Below are positions 19,261-26,026 of a stretch of 44,322 nt of DNA, piece by piece. The position numbers were made by a program, and so were the translations under genes. Origin of the DNA: Nitrospirota bacterium (GTDB lineage: Bacteria > Nitrospirota > Nitrospiria > JACRHA01); the NCBI GenBank assembly GCA_016234185.1, contig JACRHA010000032.1:1-44322 (forward strand), given 5' to 3'. How positions within the stretch are numbered: the stretch's first letter is position 1; each line of letters starts with the position of its first letter. A model generated the notes under the pieces. That model did not search any database. It was not told the DNA's origin and saw only the letters and a list, made by a program, of their open reading frames with translations.

Positions 19261-19354
19261 TGGCGGAGAGGCAGGGATTTGAACCCTGGGTGAGGTTTTA
19301 CCCCCACAACCGCTTAGCAGGCGGCTGCCTTAAGCCGTACTCGGCCACCTCTCC
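19261..19354 (-). tRNA. tRNA-Ser (anticodon GCT), CCA encoded
   Basis: Folded by hand. Acceptor GGAGAGG/CCTCTCC, anticodon stem GCCGC/GCGGT with loop CTGCTAA, long variable arm, T-arm CAGGG-TTCAAAT-CCCTG, discriminator G plus CCA. Confidence 0.9.
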
Positions 19355-19410
19355 GAGATTCGCTTCGCTCATACCTTTAGCTGATAGCTCATAGATATTA
19401 GAGGAAGCAC

Positions 19411-19761
19411 TTATTTATTCAATGTTGAGCGCAAAGCACTCAATTGTTTTACCAAGTTCTCCGCCATTTTTTCAACATCCAAGTTTAAAACAGGAATGAT
19501 CATACCATAAGTCTCTGCCAAATCAAACCCGGCAACTACTTCATAGACAGATCTAATAGATATGCCCAAAAATCTAGCAAACTCTGCGTCTGAAGCATCG
19601 GCTGAACCTTCTGCAATGTTAAGAACAATTGAGTTCAACGCTCTCAGTATTTGCTCTAATAGTCCCTTATCAGTGATCTTAGTTTGAACTTGATCTCTGC
19701 AAAACTTACAAAACTCTTTTGCCTCGGCATATACCCTAAATTTCTTAAACCTAAAAGCCAT
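19411..19761 (-). CDS. four-helix-bundle protein (23S rRNA intervening-sequence protein family)
   Basis: FRFKKF.VY..A.EF......Q........L..Q..RA..SI.LNIAEGS is the typical pattern of this family. 116 aa. Sits between two tRNA-Ser genes. Confidence 0.8.
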   Translation of the reverse strand: MAFRFKKFRVYAEAKEFCKFCRDQVQTKITDKGLLEQILRALNSIVLNIAEGSADASDAEFARFLGISIRSVYEVVAGFDLAETYGMIIPVLNLDVEKMAENLVKQLSALRSTLNK

Positions 19762-19812
19762 TCATTCGCCATAAGCTATTAGCTGAAGGTGAAATTTGCG
19801 GAGCAAATTTCC

Positions 19813-19899
19813 TGGCGGAGGGGGTAGGATTCGAACCCACGGTGCTCGTCGCACAACGGTTTTCAAGACCGCCGCCATCGTCCACTCGGCCACCCCTCC
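19813..19899 (-). tRNA. tRNA-Ser (anticodon TGA), CCA encoded
   Basis: Folded by hand. Acceptor GGAGGGG/CCCCTCC, anticodon stem GCGGT/ACCGT with loop CTTGAAA, long variable arm, T-loop TTCGAAT, G plus CCA. Confidence 0.9.
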
Positions 19900-21222: not shown

Positions 21223-21486
21223 ATTAGCGTACCCGAACAAATTGAAGATCAATACTATCAAATTTAGCATTTATAAGGCAACTTGTAAATTATCCATATC
21301 AAGACGACAAAGGGCACAACGGCTTATCAGAACCTCCGCTACGGTTATGACAATGCGGGCAATATCACCGCTATTACTGACCCGATTAACGGAAATCAAA
21401 CATTTGTAAATGATGATTTAAGCCGCCTTACCCAGGCCACAGGCGCATACGGCACGATCACCTATAGTTACGATCAGATAGGGAAC

Positions 21487-23031
21487 ATGACCTATAACTC
21501 CCAGATCGGAAACTACGCATATCCGGCAAGCGGGACAACCAGCACCAGGCCCCATGCAGTGACAAGTGCCGGGACAAACAGCTACTCCTATGATGCCAAC
21601 GGGAATATGACCTCTAATGTAGGCAAGACCATCAGTTATGATTTTGAGAACAGGCCAACAAGCATAACTTCAGGCACAAACACCACAACATTTGTATATG
21701 ACGGGGATGGTGGGAGGGTAAAAAAGACAGCAAGCGGGACTACCACTATCTACATAGGAAAGCTCTATGAATGCGTATCAGGATCATGCAGTAAATATAT
21801 CTTTGCAAGTGGTCAGAGGATCGCCATAAAGCCTGTAGGCGGTACCTCGATCAATTACTATCACACAGATCATCTTGGCTCAAGCAGTGTCATCACGAAT
21901 TCCGCAGGGACAAAGGTGCAGAGCCTTGCCTATTTCCCCTATGGCCAGACACGGGTTAGCACCGGTTCTATAGATGTACATCACAAATATACCTCCCAGG
22001 AGCTAGATGACAGCACGGGGCTTTACTTCTATAATGCAAGATATTATGATCCAGCCTTGGGGAGGTTTATAAGTGCGGATAGTATTATACCGAATCCAAG
22101 AGATCCCCAGGCTTTAAACCGATATTCCTATGCAAGAAATAACCCGATTATTTATATTGATCCATCAGGGCATCGTTGGAAGTGGCTTGATAGACAGATG
22201 GATCGGCTCAGGGAGAACGAAACCATTCAAATCGCTGTGGGTGTTGGCCTGCAGCTCTTCGGAGGACCCATCGGCCTAGTTGCTGGTAGCTATCTATTGA
22301 CTCAGAGCGAGACAGGGCGAAATATTCTGGCTGGGGAGGTTATTGTTGCGACGGCCATTGCGACAGCGTATTGTGGAGGATGCGGAGGCGTGGCATTAGG
22401 TGCATTGGTTGGTGAGGCGGTGGGGGGTTATAGCGCTTATCGGGCAGGAGGGGATATCGCATCAGGAATTATTGTGGGTGGAGCGCTAGGGGCAATCACC
22501 GGAGGCATAGGGAATTATGCGGGCGCTTCCGTGGGTGGACAATTTGGTACAGGCTGGGTAGGTCATGTGGCAGGCGGGGCAGTAAAAGGGGCGATCCTTG
22601 GCGCAGGAAGTGGTGCCAGTGCTGGGTATGCTGGCGGGGTCGGAAGCTGGAAGATGATGCTCCGAGGGGCCTATCAAGGGGCCTTGATCGGGGCGGCTGC
22701 TGGAGGGGCGATCGGGTATGGGGAATATCGCTTTACAGGTGGTGGCCTAGAGGATCTTAGCGGGCCAGAGATTGTTGACAAGGCAAAACAAGGGGTCTTA
22801 GATGGAATAACACAAGCAGCCAAGAAGGGCGATCTGGGGGCTATTATTGGAGATGTGGCTAAATCGGTTGGAAAACAATTCTTAGAACCTGCGTTGAGCA
22901 CAATGGTACGATATCCCAACTTAATCTACGGGCTAGCTTATGTAGGGGTTGGGATTGAGCAGACTGATCGTTCAATTTCCCAGGAAATGGGTGATCGTGG
23001 GGTGAGTGGAGAACTAGGAATTGATTTCTAG
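21487..23031 (+). CDS. 5'-truncated Rhs/YD-repeat core fragment with a glycine-zipper-rich C-terminal domain
   Basis: YD repeats (YSYDANGNMTS, YDFENRPTS, FVYDGDGGRVKK). Core end YFYNARYYDPALGRFISADS...NPIIYIDPSGH. The reading frame is open and Rhs-like from 21289 (YGYDNAGNITAITD, YSYDQIGNMTY), but there is no N-terminal part or start upstream. ATG 21487 is the first ATG. Confidence 0.8.
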   Translation: MTYNSQIGNYAYPASGTTSTRPHAVTSAGTNSYSYDANGNMTSNVGKTISYDFENRPTSITSGTNTTTFVYDGDGGRVKKTASGTTTIYIGKLYECVSGSCSKYIFASGQRIAIKPVGGTSINYYHTDHLGSSSVITNSAGTKVQSLAYFPYGQTRVSTGSIDVHHKYTSQELDDSTGLYFYNARYYDPALGRFISADSIIPNPRDPQALNRYSYARNNPIIYIDPSGHRWKWLDRQMDRLRENETIQIAVGVGLQLFGGPIGLVAGSYLLTQSETGRNILAGEVIVATAIATAYCGGCGGVALGALVGEAVGGYSAYRAGGDIASGIIVGGALGAITGGIGNYAGASVGGQFGTGWVGHVAGGAVKGAILGAGSGASAGYAGGVGSWKMMLRGAYQGALIGAAAGGAIGYGEYRFTGGGLEDLSGPEIVDKAKQGVLDGITQAAKKGDLGAIIGDVAKSVGKQFLEPALSTMVRYPNLIYGLAYVGVGIEQTDRSISQEMGDRGVSGELGIDF

Positions 23032-23059
23032 ACAGATCTTTTATAAGAGCGTGACTTCA

Positions 23060-23794
23060 ATGAAGCTAAGGGCGCTAATAATGTTTATCATGATGGGCAC
23101 CCTTTTTTCGAGCTGTCTGGGTGTCTATAATCGGGTGATCATCGAAGATAATAAAATAAGGTACAAGGGACTATACGAAGTCAATGCCTTGGATGGCGAA
23201 TGGAAGTGGCACGAGGTTAATCAAGGGGGACGTAGCCTTAACTCTTTTTATAAATATGATGGCGTGTATTTTCGCTGCTCCAACCAGCAGGAGCAGATGA
23301 TCACGATCGAACAGGAGTCTTATAATTGGCCACCCGGGAAGAAACCGAGAAGGATCTTAGGGCAGGAGGGATCCCCCTTCGAAACTATAGTTATGGATTT
23401 TTTGGATGAGCATTACGATGCGATGAAGCCGAAAATTCCCAAAAGGGAACTCATTTCATTTCAAGAAATCCACCTGGCAGACTATAAAGCTGTGGAGGCC
23501 ATGTTCGTAACAGAATTGAGTTATCCCGGGTCTTGCGATTCAAAAGAAAAAAGCATACGTTCTTTGAAATTCAAGTATGTTGTGATCAAGCGTGGAGAGT
23601 GGAAAGAATCTTACGCATGGTTCGGGTTCCCATTATCTAGTCTACCCAATCTGATTGTTCTATGGTATAGAAGCCCCGTTGAGGCCTTCGATACGGGGGT
23701 GGATGAGTTCGACCGAATGGTGCAGAGCTTCCGGTTTATAAAGGAGCAGCCATTTCTTCCATTGAGAAAAAAAATAAAAGAAATTAGGTTGTGA
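23060..23794 (+). CDS. predicted lipoprotein, candidate immunity protein
   Basis: MKLRALIMFIMMGTLFSSC signal peptide with a lipobox-like LFSSC. Immediately after the Rhs stop; the ORF from TTG 23021 overlaps it by 11 nt. No family recognised. Confidence 0.65.
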   Translation: MKLRALIMFIMMGTLFSSCLGVYNRVIIEDNKIRYKGLYEVNALDGEWKWHEVNQGGRSLNSFYKYDGVYFRCSNQQEQMITIEQESYNWPPGKKPRRILGQEGSPFETIVMDFLDEHYDAMKPKIPKRELISFQEIHLADYKAVEAMFVTELSYPGSCDSKEKSIRSLKFKYVVIKRGEWKESYAWFGFPLSSLPNLIVLWYRSPVEAFDTGVDEFDRMVQSFRFIKEQPFLPLRKKIKEIRL

Positions 23795-23801
23795 TGATTT
23801 C

Positions 23802-24473
23802 GTGATGATAAAAAAGCTTATATCTGCAATCTGGATCAGTATAGTAGTTTTCTTTTTCATAACTACGACTGTGTCTGCAAAGGAAGGATTTTATCTTGGG
23901 TTAGGTCTTCCCTACAATACTATTGATGGCGATTTCAAGGGGAATTCCGTCCTGAGCGGACATAATGACCTCATCATCATCCCGGATATTGATGGGGCAT
24001 TTGGTGTTGGGCTTCTCTTTGGTTATGTGACGCATTATGGGTTTGCCCCTGATCAATTATTCGCAATCGAGGGAAGCTTTCTTTTATCTGTGCACGATGC
24101 TGAATTCCAAGGGCAAAGGGGTACTGTCGATTACTCCCTGGTAAATTTCGATTTAAAGTATCTATTCATGACCTCCAAGGCCATTGAGCCCTATCTCTTA
24201 ATAGGCATCTCCCTTGCTGATTTAACGATAGAAAATGGCGCAGTTAGCCTTACTACAGGAAAAGAAGGAGATGCCCTGTTGACAGGAGTTGGATTAAACC
24301 TAGGGATCGGCCTTGATTATTATCTAACAAAAAATATCTCGTTAGGTACGGGAGTCATTTATCGGATCATCAGCTATGATATAGCAGAAGGTGTGGAAGA
24401 TAAGAGTGGGATTAAAGATGGCTTCAGTGGAAGCGGGTTAGGGATAATACTTAGCACCGCTTATCATTTTTGA
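23802..24473 (+). CDS. outer-membrane beta-barrel protein (OmpA/OmpW-like porin-family fold)
   Basis: Signal peptide ...TTTVSA/KEGFYLGLG. Alternating amphipathic strands. C-terminal ...LSTAYHF aromatic terminus. Confidence 0.75.
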   Translation: MMIKKLISAIWISIVVFFFITTTVSAKEGFYLGLGLPYNTIDGDFKGNSVLSGHNDLIIIPDIDGAFGVGLLFGYVTHYGFAPDQLFAIEGSFLLSVHDAEFQGQRGTVDYSLVNFDLKYLFMTSKAIEPYLLIGISLADLTIENGAVSLTTGKEGDALLTGVGLNLGIGLDYYLTKNISLGTGVIYRIISYDIAEGVEDKSGIKDGFSGSGLGIILSTAYHF

Positions 24474-24629: not shown

Positions 24630-25247
24630 TTGTCGCAGGGGTGTGCAACGGATAGACATCTATCGGGAAGTGAATTGCAAAAGATCGCTACCCTTAAAAT
24701 AGCTAGATTTAATTCTCCTCTACTTTTAAAAGAGACGACCGGTTCTAAAGTAGCTGGCGTTACAGGGGTCCTATTTGGTGCAATCGGCGGCGGAATAGGC
24801 GGGGGGATCCAGTATAAGATGGAAGAGGGTAACGGCAGGGAATTACAGGAGAGGTTTAAATTACCGGATTATGGTGAATTGGTAATGAATAATTTCCTTA
24901 AAAGGGCCCCTATTGAAGTATCAAATTGGCCACAGATGATCCCAGAGAATAGTCCTGTAAAGGATGATTCCAATATCTCCGGTCATAGATTGCTAATAAA
25001 AGTAGATATGATTAAAGTAAAAGATGGGGCAGGGTTTTTGGCAGAAACTACGGCCAGCCTACAAGATGCAGAAAAAAATATTCTTTGGCAAAAGAAATTC
25101 AGATATGAATCAAAGAATCATAGCAGGGTCTCTGATTTAGGAAAACTTGAAGAAGAAAATGGAGGGCTGCTCCGGGAAGAGTACGAATTTGCGGCTGAAA
25201 AGACCACTTCAAACCTTATAGAAGACTTAAATGGTAGTGGAAAATGA
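24630..25247 (+). CDS. hypothetical protein with a glycine-zipper segment; start uncertain
   Basis: GVTGVLFGAIGGGIGGGI glycine zipper followed by a soluble domain. A strong RBS plus ATG at 24529 opens a different frame containing a lipobox-like LIISGC, so a frameshift or misassigned start is possible. Confidence 0.5.
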   Translation: MSQGCATDRHLSGSELQKIATLKIARFNSPLLLKETTGSKVAGVTGVLFGAIGGGIGGGIQYKMEEGNGRELQERFKLPDYGELVMNNFLKRAPIEVSNWPQMIPENSPVKDDSNISGHRLLIKVDMIKVKDGAGFLAETTASLQDAEKNILWQKKFRYESKNHSRVSDLGKLEEENGGLLREEYEFAAEKTTSNLIEDLNGSGK

Positions 25248-25311: not shown

Positions 25312-25833
25312 TTATATGGCCGTAGGTTTTAACACATCAAGGCCCTTGATATTATCGAAATCGTTATCATTAGTAGCGATGGCAGATATGTTATGTCGTT
25401 TGATCAGGGAAACATTTATGGCATCGTTGGGGAGGAGATTATGAAGTTTCATCATGCTATAAGAATCTTTTACGGCGGCATTGCCGATCGGTAAGCTCTT
25501 AAGAATAGTAAAGAGGATCTGTGGTTTCTGAAAGTTGACTTCATTGATTAGGCCTCGATGTTGTTTGAGATATTCGAGGACTTTTTTGGGGGCTATTTTC
25601 TTATGCTTGATTATCCAGACGCGAAGGTAGATAAACAACGATTCAGCTATAACAATAGGGGAAGTGAATGCCGTTAACTCTTTTTCTTCAACCCGCTTTA
25701 GAAAATTTTTACAGGATACCCCATAGAGTTCATCTTCCAGCAGATGATATATCAGTATATTCGTATCTACAAAAATGGATACACCAGGTGAGGCCTTCTC
25801 AAGGGCCTTATTCTCCATATCTTGTCTGCTCAA
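25312..25833 (-). CDS. PIN-domain protein (VapC-like toxin)
   Basis: IFVDTNILIYHL near the N-terminus, SPIVIAES, and C-terminal AIATNDNDFDNI. These are the PIN acidic residues in canonical spacing. Confidence 0.8.
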   Translation of the reverse strand: MSRQDMENKALEKASPGVSIFVDTNILIYHLLEDELYGVSCKNFLKRVEEKELTAFTSPIVIAESLFIYLRVWIIKHKKIAPKKVLEYLKQHRGLINEVNFQKPQILFTILKSLPIGNAAVKDSYSMMKLHNLLPNDAINVSLIKRHNISAIATNDNDFDNIKGLDVLKPTAI

Positions 25834-26026
25834 TAACCTCTTTGATTAACTTATGATTTTTGATCGATAATGAAGCAAATGTCTCGTCAACAATGCTTCT
25901 TGCAGGTTTTTGTCGCGGAGTCTTAAGGAGTTTGAGGCCAAGCCTTAAAACCTTCTGAATATCCTCTTGTTTCTTAGGTAATTTTTGGAACAGATCATTG
26001 GAAACCTTTATCCTGACTTCAGCCAT
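25808..26026 (-). CDS. putative VapB-like antitoxin
   Basis: 72-aa ORF overlapping the PIN gene start. GGAG RBS. No family recognised. Confidence 0.55.
   Translation of the reverse strand: MAEVRIKVSNDLFQKLPKKQEDIQKVLRLGLKLLKTPRQKPARSIVDETFASLSIKNHKLIKEVIEQTRYGE

Follow-up and report, generated by a model that had tools for sequence, protein, structure and literature searches.

A glycine-zipper domain behind the autoproteolysis motif of a truncated Rhs gene from Nitrospirota is a candidate membrane-targeting toxin with a linked lipoprotein

The stretch of DNA analysed here (the window) comprises 44,322 nt, positions 1 to 44,322 of contig JACRHA010000032.1 from the Nitrospirota bacterium assembly GCA_016234185.1, and carries on its forward strand the 3' end of an rhs gene, a C-terminal domain of unrecognised type and, directly downstream, a gene for a predicted lipoprotein (Table 1). 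The Rhs part and the C-terminal domain are encoded together by an open reading frame (ORF) at 21487..23031 (+), the product of which has 514 aa. Residues 149-229 are covered by the full length of the profile TIGR03696 (Rhs_assc_core; positions 1-76 of 76, E 3.5e-23), a YD_repeat_2x match covers residues 51-83, and PF05593 (RHS_repeat) also matches. Residues D225-H229 form the sequence DPSGH (nt 22159-22173), and the translation across the junction reads NNPIIYIDPSGH followed immediately by RWKW, which places the end of an Rhs core and a DPxGx autoproteolysis motif directly before the candidate toxin. An earlier reading of the sequence, made without database searches (the sequence-only reading), had put the end of the core at this motif with about 285 aa to follow, and had proposed these as a candidate membrane-targeting toxin; the profile match and the translation agree on the boundary. 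The C-terminal domain (CT) is numbered below from its own first residue, and corresponds to residues 230-514 of the ORF (285 aa, nt 22174-23028).

Table 1. Parts of the rhs-derived module and their positions in the window.
Feature	Position	Strand	Basis
5' stump of the truncated rhs gene, Rhs-homologous, no start codon	21289..21486	+	Frame scan, L011 alignment
C-terminal fragment of the Rhs/YD-repeat shell, ending in DPSGH	21487..22173	+	TIGR03696, YD_repeat_2x, PF05593
Sigma-70-like promoter match (uncertain), ATGACA-17-TATAAT, 11/12 positions	22007..22035	+	Inside the Rhs fragment, ~125 nt before the DPSGH codons
CT module A: charged helix RWKWLDRQMDRLRE, then predicted hydrophobic helical hairpin with LLTQSETGR and CGGC turn	22174..22383	+	Alignment, AlphaFold2 (AF2)
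CT core: four conserved glycine-zipper helices (predicted), CT positions 76-181	22399..22716	+	Alignment, AF2
Polymorphic tail of ~95 aa, ending ...GELGIDF, plus stop codon	22741..23031	+	Tail clustering
Candidate cognate immunity protein, 244-aa lipoprotein, lipobox LFSS↓C	23060..23794	+	Position, conserved linkage to tail type

The rhs gene in the window is 5'-truncated, and at least 1130 of its N-terminal residues are gone. Its reading frame is open back to a stop just before nt 21289, with no ATG, GTG or TTG until 21487, and the first codon at nt 21289 already corresponds to residue 1131 of an Rhs protein encoded in a Nitrospirae genome (locus L011), to which the alignment extends over 531 aa with 44% identity (E 7e-115). 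The divergent serS gene starts at 21270, beside the stump. What remains of the shell amounts to ~295 aa of homology (nt 21289-22173), against the more than 1000 aa of a complete YD-repeat shell, and the Rhs and TcC cocoons in the PDB align with the last ~110-220 residues of the Rhs fragment only. The window has no N-terminal secretion or delivery domain (PAAR/VgrG-binding, signal peptide, SpvB/TcdB) for this gene, whose frame opens after the stop beside serS, and the 44 kb hold no second rhs ORF or secretion-system gene; the remaining genes are of housekeeping type (CstA, LonC, serS, leuS, holA, priA and a sigma-54 activator). The sequence-only reading had overlooked this truncation, and the upstream Rhs part that it described is a 3' fragment only. 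Because of the 5' truncation and the absence of a secretion domain or shell N-terminus, nt 21289-23794 are read here as an orphan polymorphic-toxin module, made up of the 3' end of a TcB/TcC-like rhs gene, an intact C-terminal toxin domain and a cognate immunity gene; the whole of this explanation, with the mechanism set out below, seems to us evenly poised between right and wrong. The window copy lacks a start codon at its real 5' terminus as well as any signal or secretion domain, and has lost most of its shell; it is not deployable as it is, and most likely is a remnant that persists as an immunity gene and a toxin cassette open to recombination.

Glycine and alanine account for 22.8% and 13.0% of the CT, glycine alone for 33% of CT positions 100-200, and positions 16-190 are nearly free of charged residues. 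The spacing GxxxG occurs 24 times, compared with 14.3 ± 2.9 in 2000 composition-preserving shuffles of the CT, only 0.05% of which reach that count, and triple small-xxx-small zippers occur 32 times compared with 18.3 ± 4.1. The repeated spacing that the sequence-only reading had described is therefore real beyond composition, and all of the peptides that it quoted are present.

A word-indexed search with the CT returned five relatives, and a profile built from these found 209 clusters at E<=1e-3, 97 of them at E<=1e-10, in a database of 1.84e9 representative proteins (clusters at 50% identity). Nearly all matches that have upstream sequence carry the motif DPxG[H/Y] at a distance of 5-40 aa ahead of the domain. 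Members of full length have 1800-2500 aa and combine SpvB, FG-GAP, TcdB_toxin_midN and RHS repeats; the cocoon architecture of SpvB, TcdB_toxin_midN and RHS is present in P0021, P0022, P0029, L011 and L012, and not in the truncated window copy. The full-length relatives are of the fused TcB-TcC (BC) cocoon type, and not of the PAAR/VgrG type associated with type VI secretion systems (T6SS), a point that the sequence-only reading had also passed over. Among representative genomes of GTDB a search for related loci gave only four, in metagenome-assembled genomes of Elusimicrobia, Nitrospira, Nitrospirae and Omnitrophica. When 82 relatives were scanned against Pfam, the sole recurring domain outside the Rhs and glycine-zipper families was eCIS_core/DUF4157, in 4 of them, together with one Sel1 match; glycine-zipper Pfam matches below threshold appeared in 4 of 22 and 1-2 of 82 relatives. 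The family is undescribed yet widespread, and has three parts: a hairpin with a CGGC turn, four zipper helices and a hypervariable tail of ~100 aa. We found no description of it in the literature, and no entry for it in Pfam, NCBIfam or the PDB. Two full-length members have genes of type II secretion/type IV pilus kind close by on their downstream side (L014 9135-10355; L011 5519-6187, T2SSF and a protein with a prepilin N-methylation motif), which may be a hint on export or a coincidence.

Column conservation was taken from 154 relatives aligned to the profile. The glycine columns of the zippers fall at CT positions 76/80/84(/A88), 98/102/106/110, 135/139/143/147/151 and 169/173/177/181, and are mostly 85-99% conserved (130-146 sequences), with positions 110, 135, 151, 177 and 181 at 60-77%; turns with GGD and YAGGxG are further conserved features of the core. 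Since a profile finds a family and since specific zipper columns are conserved, the CT is not low-complexity noise. The general motif of glycine-zipper channel formers is (G/A/S)xxxGxxxG or GxxxGxxx(G/S/T) (Kim et al. 2005, as cited in PMC12744356), and all four zippers show it on a predicted helix of membrane length, conserved in the homologues. Module A (CT ~20-70) has the motif LLTQSxxGR...AGEII..TA.AT.YCGGCG and is present in about half to two thirds of members (about 60-105 of 154), with G38 conserved at 97%, L42 at 90%, G48 at 99%, R49 at 82% and C67 at 63%. Its CxxC pair (CGGC, nt 22372-22383) occurs in 53 of the 104 relatives that cover the site; it lies at the predicted turn between two module A helices, where it could serve as a periplasmic disulfide lock or a metal site. 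Relatives P0004 and P0132 have module A alone in common, and their C-terminal halves differ.

An AF2 model built from a 22-sequence alignment predicts helices H16-29, H31-43 and H46-67 in module A, and H70-91, H95-123, H128-155 and H159-189 in the core (22-31 residues), each core helix bearing one zipper. The pLDDT score (for predicted local distance difference test) of the core block is 77-86, and that of the tail is below 50; an earlier run with a 5-sequence alignment gave a pLDDT of 44 and was uninformative. Foldseek searches of the model against the PDB and BFVD gave nothing at E<0.1 with a template-modelling (TM) score >0.3, the weak matches being to generic helical membrane proteins and tape-measure proteins. 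Scans of the CT against Pfam and NCBIfam gave no match at the curated threshold, the best being PF13441 (Gly-zipper_YMGG) at 17.2 bits against the 28.9 needed, and no enzymatic toxin domain was seen in the window CT with either database. PDB sequence searches with the single sequence and with the profile gave no genuine match: a hit to an acetate CoA-transferase (E 0.005) ran over a Gly-rich loop and was spurious, as was one to pyridoxal kinase in repetitive sequence. The sequence-only reading had called the domain unrecognised and free of nuclease, deaminase or ADP-ribosyltransferase motifs. Both statements hold, the second also for the 82 relatives, with eCIS_core in 4 as the only domain of note, and the fold search that it suggested assigned the domain to no known family.

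The C-terminal part of the domain is its polymorphic element. The tails of 131 relatives form 67 BLAST clusters with a median length of 109 aa, and the window tail clusters with six of them (P0001, P0007, P0009, P0010, P0023 and P0064). The sequence-only reading had noted a soluble tail of about 90 aa; a tail of very nearly this length exists, and what had been missed is that the domain is modular, with the tail as the part that varies across the family. Phe is the last residue of 26 of the 131 tails and an aromatic residue that of 40, and Phe ends most members of 11 of the 67 tail clusters. Among the 26 Phe-terminal tails, position -3 is hydrophobic in 15 and position -5 in 16, compared with one at -2 and none at -4. 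The end of the window tail (nt 23008-23028) matches this Phi-x-Phi-x-F pattern, where Phi is hydrophobic. Judged by sequence, such an ending resembles the beta-signal of outer-membrane proteins (OMPs), and it could reflect interaction with the beta-barrel assembly machinery (BAM) or a PDZ protease, passage of the tail with its C-terminus first through a Tc-like channel, or no more than a terminal beta strand. One tail class (P0002, P0019, P0021 and P0052) has the motif HExxHxxQ[Y/W] and matches PF13699 (eCIS_core, formerly DUF4157; best E 1e-6), so that a predicted metallopeptidase-like domain follows the zipper core in these members. Relative P0050 was considered as a natural tail-less member, since a genuine stop directly follows its fourth zipper, and was set aside as uninformative, because this copy, too, is an orphan that has been truncated and may carry a frameshift.

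The ORF that follows, which the sequence-only reading had proposed to test together with the domain, begins 28 nt past the toxin stop and, as a correction to that reading, carries a lipoprotein signal peptide, MKLRALIMFIMMGTLFSS, ending before the lipobox cysteine. Homologous lipoproteins follow window-type tails on independent metagenome contigs: in L001-L005 with 35% identity (E 7e-38), in L017 with 62% and in L016 with 22% over partial sequence. Other tail types are followed by other lipoproteins, namely an ankyrin-repeat lipoprotein (L006 and L010), which pairs with P0003-type tails, one of 168 aa (L008) and one of 255 aa (L014). By these comparisons, the window holds an adjacent gene that co-varies with the CT, and its product is likely to be a periplasmic immunity protein. 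It has no match in Pfam, NCBIfam or the PDB, and a word-indexed search for homologues returned only itself. The L014 lipoprotein, which has a C-terminal DEFD...RF in common with it, was rejected as a homologue (BLASTP E 0.53; hhalign probability 1.6%).

Several relatives are themselves orphans, cut at different points with the downstream gene intact (L017, L010, L007 and L001). Homology in L017 begins only at window nt 22487, L010 retains 102 aa of the CT, and in L007 an IS3-OrfA-like peptide is fused exactly at IDPSGH. Where the CT decays and the gene behind it is retained, the pattern is that characteristic of a toxin/immunity pair in which selection acts on the immunity gene, and the window locus was probably retained for its immunity gene. 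Orphan fragments with an intact downstream gene are common in the family at large (L017, L010, L007, L001-L005, L008 and L012), and genes for IS200/Y1 transposases lie beside the modules in L008 and L012.

We favour the reading that the CT is a membrane-inserting, depolarising toxin, and to this, with the orphan module included, we give an even chance. It is based on the position of the cargo behind the Rhs protease site, the four conserved zippers on helices of membrane length, the lack of an enzymatic domain (in 82 relatives, eCIS_core in 4 aside) and the predicted periplasmic partners. All of these points together fit a periplasm- or membrane-directed toxin, and an ionophoric activity, as the sequence-only reading had suggested, would be one form of it. 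Given the anatomy, conservation, family context, truncation and toxin-lipoprotein linkage that we observe, we picture as follows how the toxin would insert into the membrane and form a pore, where it would act and how immunity would come about. In a full-length relative, the CT would be cleaved at DPxGH and held unfolded in the Rhs cocoon. Delivery to a Gram-negative target would set it free on the periplasmic side, where its marginally hydrophobic Gly/Ala helices would enter the cytoplasmic membrane and associate by their glycine zippers to form an oligomeric, ion-conducting pore, with collapse of the membrane potential. The periplasmic lipoprotein would intercept the incoming toxin, probably through the variable tail, and immunity would be allele-specific. 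Every step beyond that of a cargo behind a cleavage site is one that we infer. Precedents exist for several of them: the Rhs cargo Tse5-CT makes ion-selective pores and reaches the membrane from the periplasmic side through delivery by its shell (PMC9637101, PMC10684867), EsxX, TelE and TspA are glycine-zipper toxins that depolarise membranes (PMC12744356), and the pore former Ssp6 is neutralised in the periplasm by an outer-membrane-anchored immunity protein (PMC6889166).

A number of observations weigh against a depolarising core. The type of immunity gene changes with the tail and not with the conserved core, as expected if the tail, rather than the core, is the toxic or specific element. 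Most known immunity proteins of pore formers (Tsi5, the colicin immunity proteins, ionophore CdiI and ExiCD) are integral membrane proteins and not lipoproteins. Two relatives that have only part of the core are followed by ORFs without a signal peptide, L012, in which the zipper helices precede a 210-aa soluble tail, and L007/P0004, in which module A alone is joined to an unrelated 170-aa domain. The AF2 model has a mean pLDDT of 68, which is moderate only, and the alignment behind it is shallow. The summed Hessa insertion energies of the core helices are positive, at +10 to +20 kcal/mol, with Kyte-Doolittle means of 0.2-1.0, and for this reason the helices are not classical transmembrane helices. 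In addition, the characterised cargos of T6SS Rhs cocoons are of ~15-16 kDa (PMC10684867), smaller than the 285-aa CT. As modelled, the core helices are long enough to span a membrane yet marginally hydrophobic; such hydrophobicity is expected of a protein that is kept soluble or unfolded before insertion, and is no proof that insertion occurs. The proposal of a membrane-targeting toxin in the sequence-only reading therefore stands in part: conserved zippers on predicted helices of membrane length and a conserved lipoprotein partner agree with it, and the positive insertion energies, which that reading had not foreseen, qualify it.

Among the closest known systems, Tse5 (PA2684) of Pseudomonas aeruginosa also has a toxin placed after the Rhs aspartyl-protease motif, hydrophobic and helical, with no enzymatic domain, presumed to be unfolded in its cocoon and, once released, to reach the membrane from the periplasmic side. 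Tse5-CT has ~150 aa against 285 aa here, however, and no polymorphic tail has been described for it; Tse5 is PAAR-like and VgrG-dependent, whereas the relatives described here are BC fusions of SpvB/FG-GAP/TcdB type, and Tsi5 is an inner-membrane protein with two transmembrane segments, in contrast to a lipoprotein with a single N-terminal signal sequence. PDB sequence searches with the CT gave no match to Tse5, in a library that holds the shell chain 8cp6_B and for which inclusion of the separate CT chain is unverified. The type VII secretion (T7SS) toxins EsxX, TelE and TspA (PMC12744356) and the bacteriocins CdzC/CdzD (PMC5380434) resemble the CT in having extended (G/A/S)xxxGxxxG helices as the proposed inserting or oligomerising element and no Pfam toxin domain. 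They differ from it in their carriers (LXG or type I secretion system rather than Rhs), their hosts (Bacillota, Caulobacter), the presence of one zipper rather than four conserved ones, and their immunity proteins, which are polytopic membrane proteins or DUF5085 dimers; there is no detectable homology. In Tde1 (PMC10240207) consecutive GxxxG motifs likewise adjoin a distinct C-terminal domain and form a zipper with membrane-permeabilising activity, but there the zipper is N-terminal to an Ntox15 DNase and the immunity protein is cytoplasmic, while the CT has a tail of no known fold and a lipoprotein as its partner.

The cocoons of TcB-TcC provide an architectural parallel to the relatives with SpvB, FG-GAP, TcdB_toxin_midN and RHS, and their cargo lies behind the same cleavage motif. 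The known hypervariable regions of TcC are enzymes (for example ADP-ribosyltransferases) directed against eukaryotic cells, and come with no immunity gene. The present family differs in its adjacent immunity-like lipoprotein and in its hosts, which belong to free-living uncultivated phyla. No TcA-like gene was seen in L011, L012, L014 or L015, on contigs that are short (8-20 kb) and in a scan that was not exhaustive. The truncated module itself has counterparts in the orphan rhs-CT/rhsI modules of Enterobacteria (for example at rhs loci of Salmonella and E. coli), which lie directly downstream of full-length rhs genes. In these, too, a functional 5' end is missing, a 3' piece of the core stands with a CT and an immunity gene, and the toxin fragment is truncated to varying extents whereas the immunity gene is retained; the window fragment, by contrast, abuts serS, with no full-length rhs in the 44 kb. 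Pfam zipper families (PF13441, PF05433 Rick_17kDa_Anti/Glycine zipper 2TM, PF13436) and Romo1/Tim17 have hairpins of similar composition and match weakly (E 3e-4 to 0.08). The CT is below every gathering threshold for these and for PF13488, and rather than Rhs cargos these families are short two-helix modules from outer-membrane lipoproteins or mitochondrial carriers. No match of the CT to colicins or any other pore-forming Pfam family was found, and no fold match; sequences of ionophores from contact-dependent inhibition systems were not compared directly.

A conserved core joined to a hypervariable tail points to another division of labour, in which the zipper core is not the toxin and acts as a membrane-entry or translocation module for the tail, the tail being the warhead or specificity element, much as the N-terminal zippers of Tde1 or the cytoplasm-entry domains of CdiA-CT serve their cargos. 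We hold this to be possible, if on balance doubtful. Polymorphic toxins with common delivery modules have just this construction of one core and many tails, the lipoprotein family changes with the tail in the way described above, and one tail class has the HExxH metallopeptidase-like domain. In the distant relative L012 and in P0004 of L007, a soluble C-terminal domain is followed by an ORF that has no signal peptide, and translocation of Tde1 into prey depends on its GxxxG zipper (PMC10240207). For a generic entry module, however, it is unusual that the four eCIS_core matches are the only sign of an enzyme, with no nuclease, deaminase, ADP-ribosyltransferase or other peptidase domain among the 82 relatives. 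The tails are also mostly short, that of the window has no evident catalytic motif, and the partners of window-type and several other tails are lipoproteins and hence periplasmic, which argues against a cytoplasmic target for those alleles.

The endings of the tails allow more specific proposals. The four-zipper core could be a self-inserting membrane module of TcB/TcC-like Rhs proteins in Nitrospirota, Elusimicrobiota and Omnitrophota that places the ~100-aa tail in the target envelope, where the many tails with an OMP-like beta-signal could attack envelope machinery such as BAM or trigger PDZ proteases. This is improbable in our view; if true, the combination of zipper anchor and beta-signal mimic would be a bipartite type of toxin with periplasmic lipoprotein immunity, without precedent among polymorphic toxins. 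Slimmer still is the chance that the toxin acts on machinery of the outer membrane or of envelope biogenesis, such that the tail's terminal Phi-x-Phi-x-F strand mimics the OMP beta-signal and engages BamA/BamD or a PDZ protease (DegS, Prc), and the zipper helices anchor it in the membrane. The frequency of terminal Phe, the preference for hydrophobic residues at -3 and -5 and the ending of the window tail agree with it, the lipoprotein partners could sit in the outer membrane, and the Pfam families with weak similarity to the CT (YMGG, Rick_17kDa_Anti and Gly-zipper_OmpA) are families of outer-membrane lipoproteins. The evidence is a sequence pattern, though, which most tail clusters do not have, and the 4% background against which terminal Phe is enriched was assumed and not measured. 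A terminal aromatic strand is ordinary in small beta domains, it could serve instead for threading of the C-terminus first through a TcA-like channel, and the low pLDDT of the tail gives no structural confidence to build on. Finally, we think it very unlikely that the CT is not a toxin at all and is instead a Gly/Ala-rich low-complexity linker or the membrane anchor of an Rhs-type surface protein with an unrelated lipoprotein next to it, as the 36% Gly+Ala bias, the lack of an enzymatic motif and the weak, generic glycine-zipper matches might suggest, because the domain sits after the autoproteolytic motif in the position of an encapsulated cargo, is conserved at specific columns beyond composition, has polymorphic tails with a tail-linked downstream gene (22-62% identity on independent contigs), and in its orphan copies decays while that gene is kept, as is typical of toxin/immunity pairs.

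To our knowledge, Rhs proteins with a non-enzymatic depolarising cargo are represented by essentially one studied case, the T6SS-delivered Tse5. Rhs-borne non-enzymatic membrane toxins, glycine-zipper depolarising toxins and orphan rhs modules are each already known. What is new is a separate cargo family of at least 200 clusters, which differs from Tse5 and from the T7SS zipper toxins in carrier, size, four-zipper core, modular tail and lipoprotein partners. It rides on Tc-like BC cocoons in poorly studied environmental phyla, with a modular grammar of hairpin, four zippers, tail and lipoprotein. If the depolarising reading is true, the known range of interbacterial toxins that form pores is widened, the family offers a tractable system in which to ask whether the glycine zipper is weapon or delivery device, and bacterial BC-fusion Rhs proteins without a TcA partner would serve interbacterial competition. 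For the window itself the message is more modest, that of a decapitated orphan module.

The sigma-70-like promoter match inside the Rhs fragment (Table 1) might drive expression of the CT and the immunity gene in the orphan, and is offered only as a lead; in a promoter and terminator scan of the region, match counts were not above those in shuffles. Directly after the lipoprotein gene, a 223-aa outer-membrane beta-barrel protein is encoded at 23802-24473 (+) (PF13505, E 1.8e-11); it probably lies outside the module, since it is not conserved beside the relatives. Upstream, two tRNA-Ser genes (gct and tga; 19261-19899, minus strand) flank a gene of the 23S-rRNA-intervening-sequence-protein family (19411-19761) near serS, and two tRNA-Ser genes and serS form a cluster of serine-decoding genes. 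There is no sign that these tRNA genes (19.3-19.9 kb) were an integration site for the module, and serS lies between. Further downstream, a 205-aa ORF at 24630-25247 (+) has a Gly-rich hydrophobic stretch, VAGVTGVLFGAIGGGIGGGIQY, and no Pfam or NCBIfam match. A PIN-domain protein (PF01850, E 3.7e-16) is encoded at 25312-26026 (minus strand) with a small overlapping upstream ORF at 25808-26026, and the pair looks like a VapBC-type toxin-antitoxin system.

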